This document shows, piece after piece, positions 8,484 to 48,302 of a DNA stretch of 64,000 bases (positions within the stretch are counted from its first letter, which is position 1; each line of letters opens with the position of its first letter). Made by a program: the position numbers and the translations under genes. This DNA is from Candidatus Campbellbacteria bacterium GW2011_OD1_34_28. GTDB taxonomy: Bacteria > Patescibacteriota > Minisyncoccia > Phycocordibacterales > UBA12079. The stretch is taken from the NCBI GenBank assembly GCA_001029775.1, contig CP011215.1:357722-421721 (forward strand). The letters are read 5' to 3'. The notes under the pieces were generated by a model that ran no database searches, was not told the DNA's origin, and saw only the letters and a program-made list of their open reading frames with translations.

Positions 8484-8800
8484 TAAAAAGGTGTAAGGAA
8501 TAAGGTATAAGTAGTAAGTGGGCGGGAAATTTGCTTCGCAAATTTCCCGCCCTGTTCGTTTCTAAATTTTAATATAATTCGTCTTTGCGAGCGAAGCGAA
8601 GCAATCCACGTCGTTCGTCGTGTTTTAAAAATTATTTCATTAAAAATTGTTTATAAATTAAAAATTATAAATTAAAAATTATAAATTAAAAATTTTAACT
8701 CCTATTTTCTAAATTCTCACTACTTACCCCTCACACCTTTCTCCTTACCCCTTACTACTTAGAGTTAATATGTTATAATCCAATTCATATAATTAAACAT
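8484..8800. repeat. Composite MITE-like repeat region with ~40-bp imperfect inverted ends
   Basis: 8492-8520 is the inverted complement of 8715-8760. Interior holds the hairpin gggcgggaaatttgc-ttcg-caaatttcccgccc, repeat family A (8581-8610) and a 14-bp AT tandem repeat x3 (8650-8695). Confidence 0.45.
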
Positions 8801-8803
8801 ATT

Positions 8804-10222
8804 ATGGAAAAATATAAAGCTACAATCGGTTTGGAAATCCACGCGGAATTAAAGACAAAGACAAAGATGTTTTGTGATTCCAAGAATGATCCAGACGAAA
8901 CAAAACCCAATGTAAACATTTGTCCTGTGTGTATGGCACATCCAGGGACTTTGCCTGCGATAAATAAAACCGCGGTAAAAAGTGTTTTGAAAGTCGGACT
9001 GGCATTGAATGGAAATTTGGCAGATTTTACAGAATTTGATAGGAAAAATTATTTTTATCCAGATATTCCAAAAGGTTATCAGATCAGTCAGTACAAATAT
9101 CCTCTTGTTTCAGGAGGAGAATTAAACGGGGTTAAAATTACCCGTGTTCACCTAGAAGAAGATACCGCTAGATCTAGTCACGACACAGCTGGGCACAGTT
9201 TGGTTGATTACAACAGAGCAGGTATTCCGTTGATGGAATTGGTTACAGAACCTGTCGTAGAAAATGCACAACAAGCAAGAGACTTTGCAAAAGAATTGCA
9301 ACTTCTTTTGCGATATTTGGGAGTAGCAGAAGCAAACATGGAAAAGGGGGAGATGAGAATAGAGGCAAATATTTCTGTTAGCGATACTGAAAATTTTGGA
9401 ACAAAGGTAGAGGTAAAAAATCTCAACTCTTTCAAGGTGGTTGAAAAAGCGATTGAGTATGAAATAAAAAGACAGATAGAAGCAATTGAAAATGGAGAAA
9501 AAATAATTCAAGAGACGAGAGGTTGGGACGAGAACGGACAAAAAACTTTTTCACAAAGAATGAAAGAGGGTTCTGCTGATTACCGATATTTTCCTGACCC
9601 AGATTTACCAAAATTAAAAATAAGCGAGATACCAGAATTTTCAAAAGAAAATTTGAAAAAAGAAATTTCAGAATTGCCAAAAGAAAAAAGAGAAAGATAC
9701 ACAAAAGATTATGGAATCAAATCAGAGGATTTGGAGATGTATGTTACTGACAGCGAATTTGGAAATTTCTTTGAGGGAGTAGCAAAAGAATTGAAAGGGG
9801 ATAGAGACTTGATCAAGCTTGCTTCAAATTATATTACATCGGATGTTGTAGGATTGAAAAAAGATTCTTCAGTAATTGGGTTTGGAAAAATTGAAATAAG
9901 TACTTTTGCAGAATTGATAAAAATGGTCGGAGAAGGAAAAATTTCTTCTCGTGGAACAAAAGATATTTTGAAGATTATGTTTATCGAGGGAGGTGCTCCA
10001 AACGAGATAGCTGAGAAAAATAATTTACTTCAAAAGAGTGATGAGGGAGAGTTGGAAAAAATTGTTTTGAAAATAATTGAAAACAACAAAACGGTTGCTG
10101 ATGAATTTAGATCAGGCAAAGAAAGCTCTCTGCAATTTTTGATTGGGCAGGGGATGAAAGAAACGAAAGGATCCGCCAACCCAAAAATCCTAACAGGTCT
10201 ATTCAAGAAAAATTTGAAATAA
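8804..10222 (+). CDS. gatB: Asp/Glu-tRNA(Asn/Gln) amidotransferase subunit B
   Basis: GLEIHAEL..., CPVCMAHPGTLP; 472 aa. Confidence 0.93.
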   Translation: MEKYKATIGLEIHAELKTKTKMFCDSKNDPDETKPNVNICPVCMAHPGTLPAINKTAVKSVLKVGLALNGNLADFTEFDRKNYFYPDIPKGYQISQYKYPLVSGGELNGVKITRVHLEEDTARSSHDTAGHSLVDYNRAGIPLMELVTEPVVENAQQARDFAKELQLLLRYLGVAEANMEKGEMRIEANISVSDTENFGTKVEVKNLNSFKVVEKAIEYEIKRQIEAIENGEKIIQETRGWDENGQKTFSQRMKEGSADYRYFPDPDLPKLKISEIPEFSKENLKKEISELPKEKRERYTKDYGIKSEDLEMYVTDSEFGNFFEGVAKELKGDRDLIKLASNYITSDVVGLKKDSSVIGFGKIEISTFAELIKMVGEGKISSRGTKDILKIMFIEGGAPNEIAEKNNLLQKSDEGELEKIVLKIIENNKTVADEFRSGKESSLQFLIGQGMKETKGSANPKILTGLFKKNLK

Positions 10223-10344
10223 TTTGATATAACGAATCCGATCCACCCGTCTTTGCGAGCGACAGCGAACTTCGGATTTTTTAGGCAAAAAATTCGGAGC
10301 AATAAATCTAGATTTGTAATTTGTAACTTACAATATAAAATCAA

Positions 10345-10635
10345 ATGAGAGAAAAAACCGCCTATGTTTATATAATGGCAAGTAAGAAAAACGGAACATT
10401 GTATACGGGCGTAACATCTAATTTAGAAAAAAGAGTTTGGGAACACAAAAATAATATTGTAAAAAGTTTTACACAAAAATACAATGTTCACAATTTAGTT
10501 TATTTTGAATTCGGAGAAAATATTTTATCTGCGATAGAAAGAGAGAAACAAATTAAAAGTGGCTCTAGAAAAAAGAAAATAGAATTGATTGAAAAAGATA
10601 ATCCTGAATGGAATGATTTATCAAAAAACTTTTGA
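10345..10635 (+). CDS. GIY-YIG nuclease family protein (96 aa)
   Basis: YVYIMAS..GTLYTGVTSNLEKRVWEHK GIY...YIG motif. Confidence 0.8.
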   Translation: MREKTAYVYIMASKKNGTLYTGVTSNLEKRVWEHKNNIVKSFTQKYNVHNLVYFEFGENILSAIEREKQIKSGSRKKKIELIEKDNPEWNDLSKNF

Positions 10636-11165
10636 TGACGTGGATCGCGTCGGCTTCGCCTCGCGAAGACGATCCGCACGAACAACGTGGACCTGCCTCT
10701 TTTCTGAAAGAAAAGCAACGACACGGCGAGGCAGGTTGTTTCATTGCGTTCGCAATGACAAATTTCTAAAAGAAATTTGTCACCTTCGTCGTCATTGCGA
10801 GCGTAGCGAAGCAATCCATCATGAACTGTTTGTCCGAAATTAATGGACGTGGACCTGCCTGCCGGCGAGGCAGGTCGCTTCGGCTTCGCCTCGCGAAGAC
10901 GACCCGCACGAACAACGTGGACCTGCCTGCCGGCAGGCAGGTCGCTTCGTCGCTTCGTTGCACTCCGCTTCTCGCGAAGACGAAGCCACGTCGTCATTGC
11001 GAGCGTAGCGAAGCAATCCAGGACGACGAACAACTCAAAATAAACGACGTGGATTGCTTCACTTCGTTCGCAAAGACGGAATTTCTCAAAACGAAATTCC
11101 GTCACCTTCGTCGTCATTGCGAGCGTAGCGAAGCAATCCATAACAACTCGGTCTTGCAAAGAAAA
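10636..11165. repeat. Dense cluster of nested palindromic repeats (families A, B, C); non-coding
   Basis: Three forward copies of cgtcgtcattgcgagcgtagcgaagcaatcca (10788, 10990, 11110) plus an inverted copy at 11045. A 48-bp unit is duplicated (10650/10880). cctgcctgccggcaggcagg palindromes. Irregular spacing. Confidence 0.75.
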
Positions 11166-11347
11166 ATTACTTTTTTGTTGTTCTAATTTTCAAAAAATAA
11201 AAAGTTATCCACATTTAAAAATATACTATTTTTCGTAGTCTAAAAAACCTATATTTTAAGCCATCTCGTTTAGACGAGATAAATTAAAATAAGGGTTTTT
11301 TGACGGTGAATTTTTTCAAATAAAAAGTTATTATTATAGTAATAGAG

Positions 11348-14300
11348 ATGAGGGAAGAAATTATTTTAAATAGTAAAAAATTTCTCTCACTGAAAACTGC
11401 TGCGAGAGAAACAAACTATACCAATGACTACATTGGTCAGCTTTGTCGTTCAGGCAAAATCAATTCTCAAATGGTAGGAAAAATTCGTTTTGTGGAAGAA
11501 GATTCCTTGCTTGAATATGTTAAAAAAGCGAATGGTTTTGTAGATATAAAATATGCAGATATTGAAAATATTGCTATCAAAAATAACAAGGATCTCGGCG
11601 ATTTCTCGTCTGTACGAGATACTGATTTTGCTCATTTCCGTCAAGACAAAGCCAACAGTTTGTATGTAAACATTTTTGAAACAGTTTTCTCTAAAAAAGT
11701 AGTTCATGTCTATATCGCAATACTTGTTTTGTGTGGATTGTTTTTTGGTAGTACTTTGGACATACAAGGAGGTTTTGCAAAAATAAAAAATAAATCTGCC
11801 GAAGGATTGGCAAAAATTGTCATGGGAGCAAAAGTGGCGTCTGACAAAATTTCGGAAACGACATTAGCTGTTGCAAATGGCGAGATTGATTACGAAAAAG
11901 TTTATAAAAATTACTCAAATTTTTTAGGAGAGATGTCCGTTGATTTTGCCGAAGGTGAAGTAAAGTATTTCAAAAATGTTACTGGTGTAGGTAGCAAAGT
12001 AACCGAAGCAATTTTTAATCCAAGCGATACTTTTGTAACAGTTAAAACAGAGACAAAAAAAATTCAGGGAAGTGTAGAAGAAATAATTTTTGGTGGTGTG
12101 ATTTATTTTGAAAATCTTTCTACTAATTTAATTCGTGTAAATGAAAAAATTTCTCAAAATGGTTTTGCACAAGAAAAAAATTTGGCATTGTTGAGTCAAG
12201 ACAGTTTTGGATTTACAGAAAAATTTGCAATTACTTGGTATAGAACGATATCAGGTTTTTTTAGTTCCGCTGAAAAAATAGCCGACAGCACGGACGAAGC
12301 TGACAGCGGACAGCTAACAACCAACAGCACAGACGAAGACGACTCGTCCGTCTTTGCGAGCGATAGCGAAGTAATCCAGGAAGAAGACGAAGCCAACAGC
12401 CAACAGCCAACAGCTAACAGCACGAACCAAAACACAACCATCGTTACAAACCCAATCAGAGAAATCATAAAAGAAACCGTTGTAGAAAGAGTTATCCAAA
12501 CATCAGGCGTCACACTGGAAGATCTACAAAAACTAAACAACGAACTCCGAAGTGAAATCTACAAACTCTCATCAAATACAAATGCTCAAATCACCAACAC
12601 CTACCAAGTCATCTCTGCTACTAACAACATCGACAATCTGGGTAGTGTCACAATCACCGACTCAAACATCAGTTCCTCAAATGTCTCAGGAACAGAACTA
12701 AGCTTTACCAACGGAACAATTCAAAACCTAACTGTCACAGGCACAGCTACCTCTACATACGGTGGCCCTATTTCTGCAACCAGTGGAACATACTCTGGCA
12801 ATCTAACCGTAACAGGCAACACCACTCTAAACACTCTTACCGTATCAGGAGACACAATCTTTGACACAGACACTCTTTACATCGATTCAATCAACAACCG
12901 TGTAGGCATCGGATCAACAACACCCACAGATACTCTTTCAATAAACGGAGCAACATACCTTGCACCAATATCAGCTCCATCAATCACAACCGACAGACTT
13001 TACAACATCTCCAATGATTTATACTGGGGTGGTAATCTTTTATCAGGTTCTGCCGTTGGTAATTGGACATCCAACGGAACAGATGTTTGGAGAGCATCAG
13101 GAAATGTGGGTATCGGCACATCATCACCATCTTCAGATTACAGACTATCTGTTCAAGGTAACACTTACATCAAAGGTAATCTTAGGGTAAACGGAAATAC
13201 TACAATTTCAGATAGCGGAGAATTAACAGTCGGAGACAAAGTTATCTCAGAAGGAGAAATCGGAGTTGGAACATCTTCTCCCTATGCCAAACTATCTATC
13301 CAAGGAACAACTGTTTCCACAACCACTTTTGGTATCTATGGTTTTGCAAATCAAACACAGTCTCTCTTTGATGTATATGACAATCCTACGAATAATTTAA
13401 ATGTGTTTAGAATCACGAGTGATGGCAGCGTCGGTATCGCTACATCATCACCTTTTAGAAAGTTGAGTGTAGAAGGTAGTGCGTGGATTAGTGGAGACTT
13501 AACAGCCAACAGTTTCACTGCTACTTCTTCAATGAGCGCTCCTTACTTTACTGCAACAGACTCAAGTGCAACAAGTACTTTTGCAGGAGGCTTGGCTGTT
13601 GGAACAAACAAATTTGTTGTTGATTATTCTACGGGAAATGTGGGGGTGGGGACGGTGAGTCCGGATCAAAAATTGGATGTAAATGGCTGGGGTCGTTTTG
13701 AGGGGGCTGGGTCTACAAATCGTAGTGATTCTGGTGCAATAGAGTTTTATAACAATAATGCTTCATCTCTTAATGTGCAAGCTCAAATAAAGGGTCTACG
13801 AGGTATAGGTTCATATAATTCTGGTCAATTGGGATTTTTCACTAGACTAGCGGGTACACTTTATGAGCGAATGACACTAGATGAAAACGGCAACGTCGGC
13901 ATTGGGACGATGGTGCCGGGATATAAATTGGATATTGCTGGTTCTGTGGCAGCCCCGACGACTTTACTTGTCCAAGCAGGAGGCATAACTGAAAATACTG
14001 GGAATGCTTTTCGTGTTTATAGAAACAGAGCTTCCTCTTCTACAAACGCTCCGTTAGTAGATTTTATAAATGATGCAGCAACGGATGACCAGCCACTTTT
14101 TAGACTTCAACAAGATGCACCAGCTGATATTCTCCAAGTTTTTGATGGAGCAACTCAAGTGTTTACAATCCTAGACGGCGGCAACGTCGGGATCGGCACC
14201 ACTTCACCTCTCGCAAAACTATCTGTCAAAGGAGCAGGAACAACCACAGGCATAAACTTCCAAACAACCAATTCGGCTGACACTCCGTTGGTGACTGTTT

Positions 14301-17300
14301 TGGATAGTGGGAATGTGGGAATTGGGACGGTGAGTCCGGGAGCGAAGCTTGAAGTTTTTGGCGACATGATAATAGGAGACGTGACGAATGGAAGCGTTTT
14401 TAGATATAATCCAACCACGAACACGATTGTGAACGGTGCACATGAAAATAGTATAGGTGTTGGTTCCTCAAATTCTATAATAGCTGCAGGAGGAGCTACT
14501 GCAAGTTCTAATATCAATAGTATTGGAACTGATTCTTACGTGACTACGATTAGTGGTGGATACGATAACACAATTGGAAATGACTCTCCTGCCGCAACTA
14601 TCAGCGGGGGTGCTCACCATCGAATAGATACAGGAGGAACACATGGAACAATAGGTGGTGGATCAACCAACACCATACAGGCCGGCGGAGATTATGGTTT
14701 CATTGGAGCAGGATTGAGTAATATTGTTGGAGGCACATATGCGTTCATAGGAGCAGGAAGCAACAATGTGGCTACAGGATTTAGATCTGCCGTCATGGGA
14801 GGTTATTCTAATGATGCAACGGGTCAATATGCCACCATTCCTGGCGGTTGGGGTAATGCCGCATCGGGTGATTATTCTTTTGCTTTCGGTTATAGGGCGA
14901 ATGCTGCCGCGACTGGCGTGGTTGTATTCAAAGATTCAGTAAACGCGCAATATACGGTTAATACAACTAATATGTTTGGAGCGAATTTCACAGGTGGTTA
15001 TCAGTTGCTCGGTGGTAACGTCGGCATCGGCACCACCTCACCTTTCGCAAAACTCTCTGTCAAAGGAGCAGGAACAACCACAGGTGTAAACTTCCAAACA
15101 ACCAATTCGGCTGATACTCCGTTGGTGACTGTTTTGGATAGTGGGAATGTCGGTATTGGGACGACGAATCCTGGAGCAATGTTGGAGTTATCTTCTATAA
15201 GTATTAATGGTTCAGTTTTACGTTTATCTAATAATAATAATACAATTGCCCAAGGTGAAGAATTAGGAAGTATAGAATTTTTTAGTGGAGATAATAGTGG
15301 TTCTTACCCAGATACAGTAAAAGCAAAGATTTTATCTCTCACTGAAGATTCTGTAAGTCGTGATGGAAATCTAGTTTTCAAAACTTCACTTTTGTCTGAT
15401 GCCTCACCAGTAGAAAGAATGAGAATAAATAGTAATGGCAACGTCGGCATTGGTTCCACCTCACCTTTTGCAAAACTATCCGTCAAAGGAGCGGGAACAA
15501 CCACAGGGATAAACTTCCAAACAACCAATTCGGCTAACACTCCTTTGGTGACTGTTTTGGATAGTGGAAATGTTGGTATTGGGACGACAGCGCCTAGTGA
15601 AAAATTAGAAGTTGCTGGAAATATTTTGTTATGGAATAGTGTCAATGATAATACATTAAGATTTAAAGATAATAATGTCGCTCACGGATTAACTGACCTT
15701 GTTTCTACATATATACATACTGAATTAAGAAATGAAGATGTGTCAGCAGGAGGAACAAGACTATTGGGGGTTACTGATCAGGATCTTGCCTCAGGAATTA
15801 ATTTGTATGGAGTGTTGGGTGTGACTGACCCAACTGATACTGTTCCTGCAATTAAAATTAATGGGGCAAAGAAAAACACTACTAATGTGCAATCTCTTGG
15901 AAACTTAGAAACAGTTTTTCAGGTTCAAAATAATACTTCCCCGTTATTGACTTTATTGGGAAATGGCAACCTCGGTATCGGCACCACCTCACCTTTTGCA
16001 AAACTTTCCGTCGTCGGAGATGTTGTTGCCGACTATTTCAACGCAACTTCAACCACAGCAACATCAACATTCGCTGGCGGTTTAACAGTGGGAACAAACA
16101 AGTTGGTGGTGGATAGGAGTACGGGCAACGTCGGAATCGGGACGGCGAGTCCGAGTCAAATGTTATCAGTTGGCGCAAGCAGTCAGTTTACGGTTACTTC
16201 AGCAGGTGTCGTAACCGGACAAAATTTTGCAGTAACCAGTGGGGCTTATGTAATAGATGTCAGTAACGGTTTAAGGTTGTATTCAAATGGTGGTCTGGGA
16301 ATAAAATTTACGACTTGGGATGGCAGCTATGTTGATAGGATGGTCGTTTCAACAACAGGTAACATCGGCATCGGCACCACTTCACCTTTTGCAAAACTTT
16401 CAGTAACAGGAACCGGAACAGGCACTGGCTCGGCTTTTCAAGTTGCCGATTCTGCCAACTCACCAAAATTTACTGTTTTGGATAATGGGAATGTGGGGGT
16501 GGGGACGGTGAGTCCGACTCAAAAATTAGACGTTAATGGAAATATTCATTTAGGATCCAGCGTTGATGATTTAACAACGAGAAATATATATTTGGCCTCC
16601 AATCGTTATTTAAGCCTTACTTCTACAGGGCTAGATGTTTCGAACTGGTATGGTTCCGATGGCAGCGCTCATAAAGTTGGGTTTAATGGGAAAGAAGTAT
16701 TGGTGGTTGGATCTAACGGAATTGTTGCTATAGGCAATAATATTAATGGCGGTCCTGGTGATTACATGCCTCTTGTTTTACAGGGAAATGAATCGGGCGA
16801 TGTATTAATTAAAAGCGATCAATATCAATGGGGCGTTGATACGCGTCCAATAAGAATAATTACAGATGACCCCTATGCCAATACCGGACAGACTTTAAAT
16901 GCTGGAAATATAGTTCTTCAAACAGGAATAGGGACAAATGGAGGAGCAACAGGAATAATAAAATTTGAAATTGGTGCATCTGGTTCTGAAAAAATGCGAA
17001 TTGACACTTCTGGCAACATCGGCATCGGCACCACCACCCCATGGAGAACTCTTTCCGTAAACGGAACAGCTGCTTTCACCGGTCTAACCAACGACGGAAC
17101 AGGTTATTACGCTTGTATATCAACCAACGGAGAACTAGCCACATCAACAACCGCTTGTGGAGCATCGTCAGAAAGATTTAAAACAAACATAAATGATCTA
17201 ACATACGGTCTAGACACAGTCCTTCAACTACGCCCTGTATCTTTCAACTGGAAATCAGACTTTATCAATTCTTCTTCAACTCAAATCGGATTTATTGCAG

Positions 17301-18079
17301 AAGAAGTTGATTTGTTAATCCCAGAAGTCATCGGACACGATGACAAAGGTAACATCATGAACCTTGATTATCCAAAGTTGACGGCGGTCTTGGTAGGTGC
17401 AATGAAAGAACTTAATACAAAAATCTCGGCTATTGCTTCTTCGACCCCAATCGTCTCAACAGGAATTGTTGATTCCGTTCTATCTCATCTAGAAAGTTTG
17501 GGTGCAAAATTTGTTGACGGTATTGCTTACTTCAAAGATGTTGTCGTAAAAACTTTGACAGCAGAAAAGGTTATCACAAATGGAATTGAGATGGTGGACG
17601 AAGTAACAGGAGAAATATATTGTGTGAGAATTCAAAACGGAGCGATGGTTAATATTGCGGGAACTTGTGATACAGCTAATAGCCAACAGCCAACAGCAGA
17701 ACCTTCAAACACCACTCCTCCCACAATAACAATCACAGGCAACAACCCAGCCGTAGTAGAAATAAACAGCAACTATATTGATCTAGGTGCTACAGCAGTA
17801 GACTATCAAGGAAACTCTCTAATAGTAGATACAATAGACGCAGATACAGTAGACACAACAACAGCAGGAGAATACACAGTTACTTACACAACATTTGATG
17901 GAACACTGACTTCAACAAGTACAAGAACAGTACTTGTTGAAGATTCAACAGCTGTAACAACAGAACCAGCAACGACAACAGAGCCAACAGCAACGACAAC
18001 AAATCCTGTGGTAGAACCGACAGCTACGACGACAGATCCAGTGGTAGAACCGACAGCGACAACGACAGAGCAGATTTAA
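11348..18079 (+). CDS. Giant (2243 aa) membrane-anchored fibre-like surface protein. Order: N-terminal HTH-like segment, TM helix, many GNVGIGTTSPxAKLxV and Hep_Hag-like beta-roll repeats, peptidase-S74 intramolecular chaperone domain, C-terminal Ig-like (DUF5011-type) domain and Thr/Pro-rich tail.
   Basis: Single uninterrupted ORF. The S74 motif is SSERFKTNINDL...PVSFNWKS...GFIAEEV...PEVI...DYPKLTAVLVGAMKELN. The Ig-like motif is ITITGNNPAVVEINSNYIDLGATAVDYQGN...GEYTVTYT. Confidence 0.85.
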   Translation: MREEIILNSKKFLSLKTAARETNYTNDYIGQLCRSGKINSQMVGKIRFVEEDSLLEYVKKANGFVDIKYADIENIAIKNNKDLGDFSSVRDTDFAHFRQDKANSLYVNIFETVFSKKVVHVYIAILVLCGLFFGSTLDIQGGFAKIKNKSAEGLAKIVMGAKVASDKISETTLAVANGEIDYEKVYKNYSNFLGEMSVDFAEGEVKYFKNVTGVGSKVTEAIFNPSDTFVTVKTETKKIQGSVEEIIFGGVIYFENLSTNLIRVNEKISQNGFAQEKNLALLSQDSFGFTEKFAITWYRTISGFFSSAEKIADSTDEADSGQLTTNSTDEDDSSVFASDSEVIQEEDEANSQQPTANSTNQNTTIVTNPIREIIKETVVERVIQTSGVTLEDLQKLNNELRSEIYKLSSNTNAQITNTYQVISATNNIDNLGSVTITDSNISSSNVSGTELSFTNGTIQNLTVTGTATSTYGGPISATSGTYSGNLTVTGNTTLNTLTVSGDTIFDTDTLYIDSINNRVGIGSTTPTDTLSINGATYLAPISAPSITTDRLYNISNDLYWGGNLLSGSAVGNWTSNGTDVWRASGNVGIGTSSPSSDYRLSVQGNTYIKGNLRVNGNTTISDSGELTVGDKVISEGEIGVGTSSPYAKLSIQGTTVSTTTFGIYGFANQTQSLFDVYDNPTNNLNVFRITSDGSVGIATSSPFRKLSVEGSAWISGDLTANSFTATSSMSAPYFTATDSSATSTFAGGLAVGTNKFVVDYSTGNVGVGTVSPDQKLDVNGWGRFEGAGSTNRSDSGAIEFYNNNASSLNVQAQIKGLRGIGSYNSGQLGFFTRLAGTLYERMTLDENGNVGIGTMVPGYKLDIAGSVAAPTTLLVQAGGITENTGNAFRVYRNRASSSTNAPLVDFINDAATDDQPLFRLQQDAPADILQVFDGATQVFTILDGGNVGIGTTSPLAKLSVKGAGTTTGINFQTTNSADTPLVTVLDSGNVGIGTVSPGAKLEVFGDMIIGDVTNGSVFRYNPTTNTIVNGAHENSIGVGSSNSIIAAGGATASSNINSIGTDSYVTTISGGYDNTIGNDSPAATISGGAHHRIDTGGTHGTIGGGSTNTIQAGGDYGFIGAGLSNIVGGTYAFIGAGSNNVATGFRSAVMGGYSNDATGQYATIPGGWGNAASGDYSFAFGYRANAAATGVVVFKDSVNAQYTVNTTNMFGANFTGGYQLLGGNVGIGTTSPFAKLSVKGAGTTTGVNFQTTNSADTPLVTVLDSGNVGIGTTNPGAMLELSSISINGSVLRLSNNNNTIAQGEELGSIEFFSGDNSGSYPDTVKAKILSLTEDSVSRDGNLVFKTSLLSDASPVERMRINSNGNVGIGSTSPFAKLSVKGAGTTTGINFQTTNSANTPLVTVLDSGNVGIGTTAPSEKLEVAGNILLWNSVNDNTLRFKDNNVAHGLTDLVSTYIHTELRNEDVSAGGTRLLGVTDQDLASGINLYGVLGVTDPTDTVPAIKINGAKKNTTNVQSLGNLETVFQVQNNTSPLLTLLGNGNLGIGTTSPFAKLSVVGDVVADYFNATSTTATSTFAGGLTVGTNKLVVDRSTGNVGIGTASPSQMLSVGASSQFTVTSAGVVTGQNFAVTSGAYVIDVSNGLRLYSNGGLGIKFTTWDGSYVDRMVVSTTGNIGIGTTSPFAKLSVTGTGTGTGSAFQVADSANSPKFTVLDNGNVGVGTVSPTQKLDVNGNIHLGSSVDDLTTRNIYLASNRYLSLTSTGLDVSNWYGSDGSAHKVGFNGKEVLVVGSNGIVAIGNNINGGPGDYMPLVLQGNESGDVLIKSDQYQWGVDTRPIRIITDDPYANTGQTLNAGNIVLQTGIGTNGGATGIIKFEIGASGSEKMRIDTSGNIGIGTTTPWRTLSVNGTAAFTGLTNDGTGYYACISTNGELATSTTACGASSERFKTNINDLTYGLDTVLQLRPVSFNWKSDFINSSSTQIGFIAEEVDLLIPEVIGHDDKGNIMNLDYPKLTAVLVGAMKELNTKISAIASSTPIVSTGIVDSVLSHLESLGAKFVDGIAYFKDVVVKTLTAEKVITNGIEMVDEVTGEIYCVRIQNGAMVNIAGTCDTANSQQPTAEPSNTTPPTITITGNNPAVVEINSNYIDLGATAVDYQGNSLIVDTIDADTVDTTTAGEYTVTYTTFDGTLTSTSTRTVLVEDSTAVTTEPATTTEPTATTTNPVVEPTATTTDPVVEPTATTTEQI

Positions 18080-19550: not shown

Positions 19551-21494
19551 ATGTCTTTTTCTAAAACAACAAAAATAATAATTGCTACAATCATCGTCAT
19601 TGGTGGTTTTGCTCTTTTTTATTTTTTTCAAAATAAAAGTGATGAGAAGAACATGTTCTCTTTGGGAGAATTTAATCTGCCCGAGAGTTTTTTTGTGGAT
19701 GACGAGACAGAAATAAAATTTGAATGGACGGACGACAACAAGGGTGAAGATTTGATTATTCAATCAGATAAAAAAAGTTATTTTGGGATAAACAAGTCTG
19801 AAATTTATTTTTCTGTTTCCAGTTTGAATAAAGACGCTCAAAACTTTAATTTGCGATTTTTGTTTGGAGAAGAATCAGCAAAATTGGAAAAAATAGAAAA
19901 AATAAATTCAGGAGGCATTACGAGCGAATTGTCTTTATCCGAAAATACTTTCGTTAAATTTGACAGTATGGACGGATTCAGTTCTTCCTTGTATGTTGGG
20001 GACATTATTCAACCAGAGCAGACTAATTATTACAAAGCCGTGATTGCTTACAACCCGAATACAAAAGGCGAATTTTATATAGAAGCAAAAGGCGACAAAG
20101 GTGCTTATGGTCTCCTTGACCCATGGTACAATTCCACGGGCCTCGTCGGTTATTGGTCATTTGATGGAAATGATATGGACTGGTCAGCCACAACTGCGGA
20201 AGTGATTGATCGAAGCGGGCAGGGAAATCATGGGGATGCAACTAATATGACAAGTGCAAGTGTGGATATTGGAAAGGTTGGACAGGCTTTAGTTTTTGAT
20301 GGGGTGGATGATTCTATAAGTATTGGTATTGGTACAGATTATTTTCCGATGGATACTTTTTCTATGTGTAGTTGGGTTAAATCTCCAGGGCTTGCAGATG
20401 GGATGACACTTAATGGAATTTTAAGCATAACATATGGTTTGTCAATTTCATTGGATAATAGTGGTAGGTTTTTATCAAGAATGGATGACGGAGTTACCGC
20501 TATAAGTGTATCAGCAGGGGATAATTTAGCTGATAATGAATGGCATTGGGTATGTTTAACTTTTGATGGTATAAATAGGCACATGTTTGTTGATGGTGTA
20601 AATAAGTTATCAACACCAACTACATGGCTTGGAACAACTAGGTGGCCAACAAATGCTGGTAATATTGGATATGAAAATAATAATAAAGCACTTTATAAGT
20701 TTAATGGTTCAATTGACGAAGTTCTCGTCTACAACCGCGCGCTTTCCGTGGATGAAATAAGTGCTTTGTATAAATTGGGAACTAGAAAATCGCAGGTCAA
20801 AACCACAGGGTCTAACAAAATGAAAATAAACACATCAACCGTTAATCGTCTCACTGATGGCCTTGTTGGTCACTGGACTTTTGACGGCGCGGATATGGAT
20901 TGGTCATCAACAACGGCGGAAGTGTTGGACAGAAGCGGAAATGAAAATAATGGTAACGTTTTTGGTGAGACAAAATCTGCAATCGGAAAAATAGGACAAG
21001 CCCTAGAGTTTAACGGACAGAATGATTATGTTTTGTTTAACAATCCCCAAATAACAGGATCCGAGGTTTCCACTTTTGTCTCATGGTTTAAGGTAGATGA
21101 CCCCAGCAGATTACAAATGATTTTATATTGGGGTAACTTTTCTGATTATCTAGGTATGATGCAAGTAATACACGTTTCAACCGCAAAATGCGGTGGGACA
21201 TATAACACTATTAATTATTGGGTTGATACCGAGACAGTGGTCGCGGGGGAATGGAATCATTTAGCCTGTGTTTATGACGGAACGAACGTTCTGGCTTATC
21301 TTAACGGAGTTTATTACGGGAGTAATGTATACCCGGCAGCGGTAACTTCTAGCTCCCTTTATCTATCTAGGTATGATGCTACAAAGTATTTTAATGGCTC
21401 AATCGATGAAGTCAGAATTTATAACAGAGTCCTCTCTCCAACCGAAATAACAGAACTCTACAATATGGGAGCAAAAAAAATAAAAATTAGATAA
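19551..21494 (+). CDS. Membrane-anchored protein with two concanavalin-A-like lectin (LamG_3) domains
   Basis: N-terminal TM; two copies of LVGYWSFDG..DxSG.GN.G...FDG..D...YKFNGSIDEV.VYNR.LS..EI..LY. Confidence 0.7.
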   Translation: MSFSKTTKIIIATIIVIGGFALFYFFQNKSDEKNMFSLGEFNLPESFFVDDETEIKFEWTDDNKGEDLIIQSDKKSYFGINKSEIYFSVSSLNKDAQNFNLRFLFGEESAKLEKIEKINSGGITSELSLSENTFVKFDSMDGFSSSLYVGDIIQPEQTNYYKAVIAYNPNTKGEFYIEAKGDKGAYGLLDPWYNSTGLVGYWSFDGNDMDWSATTAEVIDRSGQGNHGDATNMTSASVDIGKVGQALVFDGVDDSISIGIGTDYFPMDTFSMCSWVKSPGLADGMTLNGILSITYGLSISLDNSGRFLSRMDDGVTAISVSAGDNLADNEWHWVCLTFDGINRHMFVDGVNKLSTPTTWLGTTRWPTNAGNIGYENNNKALYKFNGSIDEVLVYNRALSVDEISALYKLGTRKSQVKTTGSNKMKINTSTVNRLTDGLVGHWTFDGADMDWSSTTAEVLDRSGNENNGNVFGETKSAIGKIGQALEFNGQNDYVLFNNPQITGSEVSTFVSWFKVDDPSRLQMILYWGNFSDYLGMMQVIHVSTAKCGGTYNTINYWVDTETVVAGEWNHLACVYDGTNVLAYLNGVYYGSNVYPAAVTSSSLYLSRYDATKYFNGSIDEVRIYNRVLSPTEITELYNMGAKKIKIR

Positions 21495-21549: not shown

Positions 21550-22251
21550 ATGAGAAGAAAAGTACTATTTGTAAACGGAGAATTTTATCATATCTTTAAT
21601 AGGGGAACAGATAAAAGAAACATATTTTCGGATAAAAATGATGCATTTAGATTTCTTGAAAGTATCGAAGTTTTTAATAATATTGAAGCCGGCAATAATA
21701 TCTTTCGCACTCATAGATTGAAAAATGGACTGGGTCCGACCCAGTCTAATCCAGAGAAGATAGAGAAAAAAGAACCAATAGTGAATATTATTTGTTATTG
21801 TTTAAATTCAAATCATTATCATTTTATATTGGAACAATTAGTTGATGGTGGAATAAGTGAATTTATGAAGAGGCTAGGAGGTGGCTATACTTGTTATTAT
21901 AATGAAAGACATAAAAGATCGGGGGTATTATTTCAGGGTAAGTTCAAAGCTGCTCATATAAAATCAAATGAACAATTATTGCGCCTTAGTTCTTATGTGA
22001 ATTTGAACAATAAAGTCCATCAAAAATTTGATAAATATAAAAAAAATTTCCTTGATTTGATTGCAAATAGATCAAGTTGGGAAGAATATATTAAAAAAGA
22101 TAATAAATACAGTATTTGCAAAAAAGATATCATTTTAGGACAATTTAAAAACAGAGAAGATTATAGAAAAAATGCCGAAGATGTGATAAAAGAAATTAAA
22201 GAAATGAGGTATGGGGAAGAAGTAAACTCGACTGGGTCCGACCCAGTCTAA
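21550..22251 (+). CDS. IS200/IS605-family HUH transposase, REP-associated tyrosine transposase (RAYT)-like
   Basis: EFYHIFNRG..IF, HUH motif NHYHFIL, GYTCYYNERHKRSGVLFQGKFKA..LSSYVNLNN; flanked by identical hairpins. Confidence 0.7.
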   Translation: MRRKVLFVNGEFYHIFNRGTDKRNIFSDKNDAFRFLESIEVFNNIEAGNNIFRTHRLKNGLGPTQSNPEKIEKKEPIVNIICYCLNSNHYHFILEQLVDGGISEFMKRLGGGYTCYYNERHKRSGVLFQGKFKAAHIKSNEQLLRLSSYVNLNNKVHQKFDKYKKNFLDLIANRSSWEEYIKKDNKYSICKKDIILGQFKNREDYRKNAEDVIKEIKEMRYGEEVNSTGSDPV

Positions 22252-47845: not shown

Positions 47846-48140
47846 TTTTTATTTTTAAATTTAAAAATATTTAAAAAAATTTTTTTCACAAAAATATTTT
47901 TAGAAATAAAAAATAAAATTTATTTTTTTAAATTTTTTAAAAAATTTTTGTAAAAAAATTATCCACACTTTTTGCAAAAAAATATTTCTTACTTTGAAAA
48001 AAGTTGTATAATTATAGTAAAGAAAAAACATTTTTTGTTTAGACTTATTTTTAAAAATTTTTTTAAAAAAGATTTTTTGAAAATAAGTCTAACGGAAAGG
48101 TCGAATCTTTATTATTAAAAAATTAAATTTTTTAAATAAC

Positions 48141-48302
48141 ATGCCTACAAAGAAAAAAGCTGCTAAAAAAACAACAAAGAAGAAAGTTGTTAAGAAAGCT
48201 GTTAAAAAAGTAGCAAAGAAGAAAGTTGCAAAGAAGAAAGTTGCTAAAAAAACAGTTAAGAAAGTAGCAAAGAAGAAGACAGTAGCAAAGAAAAGAAAAT
48301 AA
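48141..48302 (+). CDS. Small lysine-rich basic protein (53 aa), histone H1/Hc1-like (absent from ORF track, <60 aa)
   Basis: MPTKKKAAKKTTKKKVVKKAVKKVAKKKVAKKKVAKKTVKKVAKKKTVAKKRK; terminator hairpin 48326-48352; long AT-rich upstream region. Confidence 0.55.
   Translation: MPTKKKAAKKTTKKKVVKKAVKKVAKKKVAKKKVAKKTVKKVAKKKTVAKKRK

Follow-up and report, generated by a model that had tools for sequence, protein, structure and literature searches.

A candidate membrane-anchored giant fiber with a helix-turn-helix domain at its base recurs across Patescibacteria

We analyzed a stretch of 64,000 nucleotides (the window) from Candidatus Campbellbacteria bacterium GW2011_OD1_34_28 (contig CP011215.1, positions 357,722 to 421,721), in which one gene encodes a giant protein of 2243 residues. 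With moderate confidence, we favor the reading that its product is a cellular, trimeric surface fiber with a type II membrane anchor, which cleaves itself through a Peptidase_S74 (S74) domain, carries a helix-turn-helix (HTH) domain more likely to bind DNA than a protein, and is likely to mediate attachment to a host or another surface. Domain identities and their order, the recurrence of the design, a conserved neighborhood, and a conserved catalytic dyad were observed directly. Each single part of the protein is of a known kind, and their combination is recurrent in Patescibacteria. The full set of cytoplasmic winged helix, signal anchor, giant fiber, internal S74, and Ig-like tail is described neither in Pfam or NCBIfam nor in the open-access literature that we searched. 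The gene and its parts are as follows.

11348..18079, + strand: whole gene, ATG start, 2243 amino acids (aa) plus stop, no internal stop
11348..11533, + strand: aa 1-62, predicted cytoplasmic winged HTH of the MerR/excisionase (HTH_17) type (profiles, AlphaFold model)
11534..11698, + strand: aa 63-117, linker on the cytoplasmic side with little conservation; its last residues ahead of the membrane are KK
11699..11758, + strand: aa 118-137, single transmembrane (TM) helix, VVHVYIAILVLCGLFFGSTL, presumed signal anchor with the N-terminus in and the C-terminus out
11759..12499, + strand: aa 138-384, juxtamembrane part on the outer side, followed by a low-complexity spacer that is acidic and S/T-rich
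12500..12682, + strand: aa 385-445, conserved "neck" at the fiber base, …LEDLQKLNNELRSEIYKL…NNIDNL (read from sequences)
12683..17164, + strand: aa 446-1939, fiber shaft with 15 G[NS]VGIGT…AKLxV-type repeats, the mature part N-terminal of the predicted cleavage
14597..14926, + strand: aa ~1084-1193 within the shaft, Gly-rich repeats like a trimeric autotransporter head (UspA1/YadA left-handed beta-roll; phmmer against the PDB)
17165..17437, + strand: aa 1940 to ~2030, S74 intramolecular chaperone/autoprocessing domain (Pfam, dyad alignment)
17165..17167 and 17180..17182, + strand: S74 dyad, Ser1940 and Lys1945
17465..17707, + strand: aa 2040-2120, post-chaperone module with two Cys, …TGEIYCVRIQNG…GTC (ad hoc profile)
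17726..17938, + strand: aa 2127-2197, bacterial surface Ig-like domain PF16403 (Pfam)
17945..18076, + strand: aa 2200-2243, Thr/Pro-rich C-terminal repeats (tandem repeat)

The helix-turn-helix domain and its family

A sequence-only reading of this DNA had taken the first ~60 residues for an excisionase/MerR-type HTH_17 domain, which is borne out by full-length profile alignment, by homologs above the cut-off, and by the predicted fold. Profile matches at aa 12-60 cover positions 1-49 of 51 in HTH_17 (E 0.024, 15.3 bits, below the cut-off of 27) and 1-49 of 49 in the excisionase profile TIGR01764 (E 8e-4, 19.7 bits, below the cut-off of 28.8). Homologs of the N-terminal domain exceed the Pfam cut-off for HTH_17 with 28-55 bits, and one of them (P0163) combines two HTH_17 copies with Peptidase_S74. 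The same profile check placed the N-terminus in a very common signal-anchor family, yet one that is related to HTH_17, so the assignment stands. A usable AlphaFold model needed an alignment of 50 sequences, with which the pLDDT was 87.4, compared to 36.7 for aa 1-150 as a single sequence. The model runs from a beta-hairpin through helices 15-22 and 26-35 to a beta-wing at 40-50 and a helix at 51-61, and this predicted succession of two helices and a beta-hairpin wing is the one that defines the HTH_17 fold. When the model was compared to known structures using Foldseek, it matched excisionases, BldC, and MerR-family proteins, and its nearest matches are nearly all DNA-bound or DNA-binding proteins. 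Among PDB sequences, phmmer found only a chance-level match to the HTH, and the A2 profile had 0 matches.

Within the domain, Y24, D27, and R34 are invariant; Y28, G30, Q31, L32, and G44 are conserved at 94% or more; and basic residues are conserved at positions 10, 16/17, 34, 37, 41, and 45, with a median pI of ~9. The fold matches and this pattern of basic residues favor DNA binding. Judging from sequences and a model, we prefer DNA over a protein partner as the probable ligand of the HTH, without strong confidence. BldC and Xis bind DNA as head-to-tail arrays, and HTH copies that occur in tandem or are clustered by a trimer would suit arrays of this kind.

Word-indexed protein searches with the N-terminus returned few relatives, and it was an exhaustive search of representatives that revealed the family. 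A profile built from four sequences of the N-terminal 66 aa matched 6811 of 1.84 billion cluster representatives at E ≤ 1e-3 and 3999 at E ≤ 1e-10. The top 150 matches, with a median length of 326 aa, have two tandem copies of the domain in 146 cases and three in 4, and 139 show one hydrophobic TM-like segment; giants among the top matches are P0144 (1995 aa) and P0163 (1699 aa). When one genome per species was scanned, at least 594 stretches with the HTH were found. The loci that were kept are all from Patescibacteria (80/80) and include Paceibacterota/Parcubacteria, Campbell-, Lloyd-, Taylor-, Wolfe-, Kaiser-, and Nomurabacteria, as well as records labeled Saccharibacteria, such as L021, L022, and L078. 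We counted 95 HTH-headed ORFs (open reading frames) in 83 loci, 32 of which are at least 1000 aa long (11 complete and 21 cut by the locus end, the longest exceeding 3390 aa), and most of these 32 have a hydrophobic segment at about aa 90-250. S74 is found in 6 of the 11 complete giants (L001, L021, L029, L035, L083, and the window) and also in two ORFs cut by the locus end (L006 and L078). The HTH is the most conserved part of the family proteins, and the outer parts differ greatly between relatives, with lengths between about 100 aa and over 3000 aa.

The neighborhood of the family gene is conserved as well. Upstream lie gatB in 59 of 82 loci, the window included, and Obg in 51 loci; an AI-2E-family permease occurs in 26 family loci and SecA in 23, and in many family loci secreted proteins are encoded downstream. 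Directly upstream of the HTH-TM gene in 36/82 loci is a divergent gene for a BldC-like MerR-family protein of 71-82 aa without effector domain, which scores 38.7 bits for MerR and 30.5 bits for HTH_17. Loci L002 and L003 contain a same-strand cluster with a 377-aa two-HTH-TM protein, four secreted/membrane proteins, and a 3412-aa S74 giant. The window protein resembles a fusion product of the first gene of such a cluster with its last one, and the fact that anchor and S74 giant are separate there and fused in the window argues that both parts work together. We sought the small MerR gene and WxL-type genes in the window as well, and none is present.

More generally, a cluster of secreted/membrane proteins is conserved 3' of a short HTH-TM gene in L002, L003, L077, L080, and others. 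Its members include proteins of ~240 aa, ~327 aa, and ~260 aa and an fn3 protein of ~570 aa; the ~327-aa protein is barely at the cut-off for WxLIP_PGBD (PF06030) and carries a TM helix at its C-terminus. This arrangement resembles the WxL/Csc cell-surface complex loci of Firmicutes.

Membrane anchor, fiber shaft, and S74 domain

The earlier claim that one TM helix follows the HTH agrees with hydropathy, by which aa ~118-137 are the sole hydrophobic segment of the protein. No N-terminal signal peptide was seen on inspection of the sequence, so the helix would act as a signal anchor. Homolog P0001 (79% identical) has an insertion of ~50 aa within the linker region. On the outer side, aa 138-384 contain no Pfam family and are matched only by the close relatives P0001 and P0002, and the neck motif is also found 3' of the TM helix in P0144 and P0150.

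The shaft had been described as bearing dozens of GNVGIGT repeats, which is an overstatement, as regular expressions give 15 when loose and 12 when strict. At the DNA level, its repeat families have four copies of 177 nt, nine of 58 nt, and seven of 53 nt. The shaft matches tail-fiber PHROGs (phrog_9942, E 6e-42; phrog_18345, E 1e-32) and is 26-32% identical to cyanophage, Pelagibacter-phage, and Thermus-phage fibers in tblastn. Pfam searches with shaft segments gave no significant family. Of the Hep_Hag-like repeats proposed earlier, the Pfam family itself remained silent even at E ≤ 10; what stood is a match of aa ~1084-1193 to the UspA1 head (3pr7, E 9.5e-13; 3ntn, E 5e-5), in a region of high compositional bias.

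The S74 chaperone domain was recognized correctly from the sequence: PF13884 matches aa 1940-1994 with E 1.6e-12 and 48 bits, compared to a cut-off of 22. Across 22 aligned S74 homologs, the only invariant columns are Ser1940, Lys1945, one Gly, and one Ala, and 89 of 100 S74 homologs have the S-x4-K motif. While phmmer of this region against the PDB gave 0 matches, a profile matched solved chaperone domains with the dyad in register, in a tail fiber (8jov, E 6e-14), MYRF (7dc3, E 9e-9), the S16 long tail fiber (6f45), T5 pb1 (8hqz), and GA-1 gp12 (3gud), whose chain starts at the Ser aligned with Ser1940. Since the dyad is in register with solved domains, we predict cleavage between Ala1939 and Ser1940. 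This corrects the cleavage site first proposed, the Ser directly before ERFK: the alignment points to the first Ser of SSERFK, with Lys1945 at +5.

A tail past S74, with a DUF5011-like Ig domain and T/P-rich repeats, had also been noted. Its presence stands, and its stated length of ~330 aa does not; the tail measures 249 aa from the Pfam match or 304 aa from the predicted cleavage site. PF16403 scores above its cut-off at aa 2127-2197 (E 4.8e-9, 36.6 bits against 27), and the T/P-rich tail contains a 33-nt tandem repeat (2.7 copies, 17980-18069). The Cys module corresponds to no Pfam family and, by the ad hoc profile, is present in 24 C-terminal homologs and several related giants. All 10 homologs checked have S74, then 105-145 aa, then PF16403, so the tail is a conserved module and not a fusion artifact; many homologs are annotated "tail fiber domain-containing protein [Patescibacteria]". 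Complete HTH-headed giants with S74 always continue for 260-410 aa past it. Both the N-terminal HTH and the post-S74 tail, which had seemed oddities of one gene, are the rule in this family of Patescibacteria.

Further observations concern S74. A single HTH-headed chain has two such domains in L006 (at aa 1164 and aa 1295) and in L029 (at aa 2230 and aa 2541), which would mean that the chain cleaves itself at two sites or that one copy has degenerated. In L046, a 1548-aa HTH-headed ORF (10001-14647) is directly followed by a separate 425-aa ORF (14819-16096) that starts with S74. This pair may have arisen from the fused architecture by a split or frameshift, or it may be a two-gene form that occurs naturally.

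Several known kinds of protein were considered and rejected. A trimeric autotransporter adhesin would end in a YadA-type beta-barrel, which was not found (no Pfam match to the YadA anchor at E ≤ 1), and the C-terminus consists of T/P repeats. A sortase-anchored surface protein does not fit a chain without signal peptide, LPXTG motif in its sequence, or Gram_pos_anchor match in Pfam. A prophage tail fiber, similar in its shaft, was discarded because the flanks are cellular and S74 is not terminal.

A different role for the fiber is that of a structural surface coat or spacer, like an S-layer stalk, and not of an adhesin. We consider it unlikely. It would agree with a large conserved locus that is chromosomally fixed beside housekeeping genes, with the cell-wall-associated, WxL-interacting-protein-like complex encoded in related loci, and with the lack of any recognized receptor-binding domain besides one Ig-like domain. 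However, tail-fiber and UspA1-head modules are typical of receptor-binding proteins, and variable outer parts on a conserved HTH are expected of host-range determinants. We continue to favor attachment to a host cell or other surface as the most likely role; attachment to a host had been raised as a possibility in the sequence-only reading and is plausible.

Native character of the gene and its upstream DNA

An exact sequence look-up identified the product as GenBank AKM84079.1 (UR58_C0001G0362), annotated "hypothetical protein" and encoded on a Candidatus Campbellbacteria contig of 752,630 bp. The window is AT-rich (33-37% G+C), with nearly all genes on the + strand. On the 5' side of the giant gene are rpsE, rplO, secY, gatB, and a GIY-YIG ORF, and on the 3' side gap, a LamG protein, an IS200-like ORF, and rpiB. 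The annotation of these neighbors confirms gatB and gap as flanks and includes no phage gene. The earlier view of the gene as cellular also holds: its GC3 of 0.30 is like that of the neighbors (0.23-0.32), its flanks are housekeeping genes, the post-gatB position recurs in related loci, and neither 2.9 M viral contigs nor 50,697 phage records yielded a relative of the HTH. With a 343-aa C-terminal query, the matches in 292 phage records are confined to the S74 part, the first ~134 residues, and 0 of the 292 cover 80% of the query; PHROG matches all put S74 at the C-terminal end of the profile.

These results bear on whether the gene could be a prophage or tailocin tail-fiber gene, or an assembly or frameshift fusion, which we regard as highly improbable. 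The shaft does resemble tail fibers, internal repeats could in principle mislead an assembler, and the G+C content of the gene is 41%, compared to ~35% around it. However, the excess sits at codon position 2 and reflects a Thr/Gly/Ser/Ala-rich composition, and since GC3 matches the neighbors the gene looks native; recent horizontal transfer was rejected on the same ground. Moreover, the 2243-aa sequence is recorded identically in three sources, and the HTH-TM unit is absent from the phage and viral collections searched. Frameshift fusion is ruled out by the S74-to-Ig-like order in the 10 homologs and by HTH, TM, and fiber being continuous in independent genomes, which share the domain order.

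Two genes 3' of the giant gene, at 19551-21494, is a gene whose 647-aa product has a TM anchor at its N-terminus as well as two LamG/Laminin_G_3 domains. Similar LamG proteins are found near the family gene in other loci, mostly downstream (cluster 13, 5 loci including the window), and the one in the window may be a partner surface lectin of the giant fiber.

Two features lie upstream of the start codon.

11205..11213, + strand: TTATCCACA, an exact match to the DnaA-box consensus, located 143 nt 5' of the start codon
11313..11340, + strand: promoter-like site TTTTCA-16-TATAGT, with the -10-like hexamer ending 7 nt before the ATG (consensus scan only)

The motif TTATCCACA occurs four times in the window, compared to 0.66 expected. 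On the coding strand, it occurs in the 300 nt preceding 48/91 family genes, compared to 24/603 other genes, and in those preceding 31/41 family genes of at least 600 aa. Its usual position is -44 to -69 relative to the start codon, and in about ten loci that we read it is 22-31 nt upstream of TATAAT; in L004, the closest relative, it has the same position as in the window (-143). A general promoter element was rejected as an explanation because only 4% of other genes have the motif. In five related loci it also precedes dnaN, where dnaA-dnaN lie ~8-9 kb from the giant gene, and the simplest reading is that it is the real DnaA box of these organisms; no dnaN was found in the window. The distribution suggests, on sequence grounds, DnaA and hence cell-cycle control of the family surface genes.

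A second motif, (C)CGAGAT, is often found just before the -10 box of family genes, and the window has the hairpin ATCTCGT-TTAG-ACGAGAT nearby. Promoter and terminator scans of the window gave site counts not above chance. In many relatives, TATAAT is placed 7-8 nt 5' of the ATG, a spacing which suggests that the mRNA of the giant gene is leaderless or near-leaderless.

The HTH-TM-extracellular topology, which recalls ToxR/CadC, raises the idea of a contact sensor, in which the binding of a host or the shedding of the fiber would lead to intramembrane proteolysis, and the HTH would be set free to regulate genes, similar to Notch, MYRF, or ToxR/RIP. We find this improbable. MYRF also combines a DNA-binding-type domain, a TM helix, and S74, and short two-HTH paralogs head surface-protein operons and adjoin the divergent small MerR-like gene. 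Yet the domain order is unlike that of MYRF, so S74 cleavage cannot free the HTH, and we identified neither a protease site nor a protease partner. In addition, an invariant recognition helix speaks against diversified regulons, and the upstream TTATCCACA, a conceivable target, is more simply a DnaA box. Release of the HTH by S74 itself, as in MYRF, was excluded because the TM helix separates the two domains, and its release by some other protease is a speculation of low probability.

Other repeats and motifs were seen in the window. A further TTATCCACA lies at 47959-47967, 39 nt upstream of a TTGTATAAT promoter-like site, and 3' of both, at 48141-48302, is a 53-aa ORF rich in Lys and Ala (MPTKKKAAKKTTKKK…), which is without a match in Pfam and is similar to a nucleoid protein of the histone-H1-like kind. 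G+C-rich palindromic repeats form a cluster at 10640-11160, between the GIY-YIG ORF and the giant gene, and also occur at 8583 and 24306. They comprise a 41-nt unit in three copies, a 54-nt unit in two, and inverted partners, and their 25-nt core, CATTGCGAGCGTAGCGAAGCAATCC, has five copies in the window compared to 0 expected. The repeats are REP-like, and their cognate RAYT could be the IS200/Y1-transposase-like ORF at 21550-22251. The in-frame insertion of P0001 between HTH and TM looks like a translated copy of such a palindromic repeat.

Proposed mechanism, comparison with known systems, and meaning

In the mechanism that we propose, the TM helix would insert as a signal anchor, so that ~117 N-terminal residues including the HTH would stay in the cytoplasm and ~2100 residues would be exported as a long fiber of tail-fiber-type repeats, with the YadA/UspA1-like head block midway. 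The long tail fibers of T4 suggest by analogy a rough length of about 80 nm. In endosialidase, phage fibers, and MYRF, S74 joins three chains, nucleates folding, and self-cleaves. By analogy, the S74 domain of the giant protein would assemble three chains, start folding from the C-terminal end, and then cut between Ala1939 and Ser1940 by means of its Ser/Lys dyad. The mature fiber of aa 1-1939 would remain membrane-anchored, and the severed 304-aa piece (chaperone, Cys module, Ig-like domain, and T/P repeats) would be shed or stay as a bound cap. The HTH-linker-TM unit would tie the fiber base to a cytoplasmic ligand conserved across Patescibacteria and, if this ligand is DNA, could act as a membrane-tethered regulator or a nucleoid tether.

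Several points weigh against this reading. The HTH of the window scores under the Pfam and NCBIfam cut-offs, and since the A2 profile has no PDB matches, its assignment relies on transitive matches and on a model of the fold. The similarity to UspA1 is subject to compositional bias. The trimer, the cleavage, the topology, and the adhesive role are all drawn from what is known of the families, and the reading does not account for the 304-aa fragment past the cleavage site. Lastly, the putative DNA-contact helix is nearly invariant across the superphylum, an unusual trait for transcription factors that a conserved protein partner would explain at least equally well, and the protein-binding MerR-like folds CbpM and DafA are among the structural matches of the HTH.

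The last points lead to a possible, if less probable, alternative, namely that the HTH is a protein-docking module tying the fiber base to the cytoskeleton, the divisome, a pilus, or secretion machinery. Besides the near-invariant recognition helix, it has precedents in CbpM, DafA, and RodZ, whose N-terminal HTH binds MreB. However, the nearest structural matches are nearly all DNA-binding, the conserved basic residues are located where MerR/Xis domains contact DNA, and no partner gene is prominent in the conserved neighborhood. DNA remains our preferred ligand.

Comparison with known systems shows which features are shared. The phage fibers (endosialidase K1F, T5 pb1, phi29/GA-1 gp12, and the S16 long tail fiber) have the S74 dyad in register and a repeat-rich shaft, as seen from the PHROG matches, and trimeric assembly nucleated from the C-terminus is expected in both. 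In these fibers, S74 is the extreme C-terminus and the N-terminal part attaches to the virion, whereas the window protein has 249 aa beyond S74 (Cys module, Ig-like domain, and T/P repeats) and, in a cellular context, an HTH and a TM anchor at its N-terminus. MYRF likewise has a DNA-binding-type domain, a self-cleaving and trimerizing S74/ICA, and a single TM helix in one chain. Its order is DBD-ICA-TM, and cleavage frees the DBD; in the window protein the order is HTH-TM-fiber-ICA, and the predicted cut would lie outside, ~1800 residues from the membrane. The DNA-binding domain of MYRF is of the Ndt80 type, whereas that of the window protein is of the MerR/Xis type.

YadA, UspA1, and BadA are also long modular trimeric fibers, as the window protein is presumed to be, and the Gly-rich head block has its compositionally biased match to UspA1. 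They are anchored by a beta-barrel, whereas the window protein has no barrel and would be anchored by its N-terminus in the cytoplasmic membrane; to our knowledge, Patescibacteria have no outer membrane. RodZ and ToxR/CadC/TcpP have the topology presumed here, with a cytoplasmic HTH, one TM helix, and an extracytoplasmic domain. Their HTH is of the Xre type in RodZ and of the OmpR type in ToxR, compared to the MerR/excisionase type in the window protein, and their outer part is a small sensor or periplasmic domain instead of a 2100-aa fiber. BldC, Xis/AlpA/RdfS, and RacA, the best structural matches of the HTH, are soluble proteins, whereas the HTH of the window protein is fused to a membrane anchor and an extracellular fiber.

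A bolder and quite doubtful extension is that the HTH-TM unit is a physical link carrying a signal, in which three winged helices clustered by the trimer bind a DNA site conserved across the superphylum. If this were true, the site would be origin-proximal DNA or the DnaA-box promoter of the protein's own gene family; the assembly of surface fibers or contact with a host would be linked to gene expression, the anchoring of the chromosome, or the cell cycle; and the giant protein would be a bacterial counterpart of MYRF or ToxR acting on a 2000-residue adhesin.

Patescibacteria make up a large share of bacterial diversity, their cultivated members live attached to other cells, and their attachment machinery is largely uncharacterized. 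A fiber alone is unsurprising in an episymbiont lineage; the surprise is a DNA-binding-type cytoplasmic domain at its base that is conserved across the superphylum. In one Saccharibacterium, Tn-seq found "multiple adhesins" to be essential (PMC10633639, PMC11665869). Taken together, our findings point to a widespread design in which phage tail-fiber building blocks would have been domesticated into a membrane-anchored cellular fiber. Giant fibers of this design would be a second natural setting, besides MYRF, in which S74 is not at the C-terminal end of the protein. The predicted self-cleavage site and the question of the HTH ligand are testable handles on their biology, and the 60-residue HTH profile is a finder of candidate surface fibers in any Patescibacteria genome.

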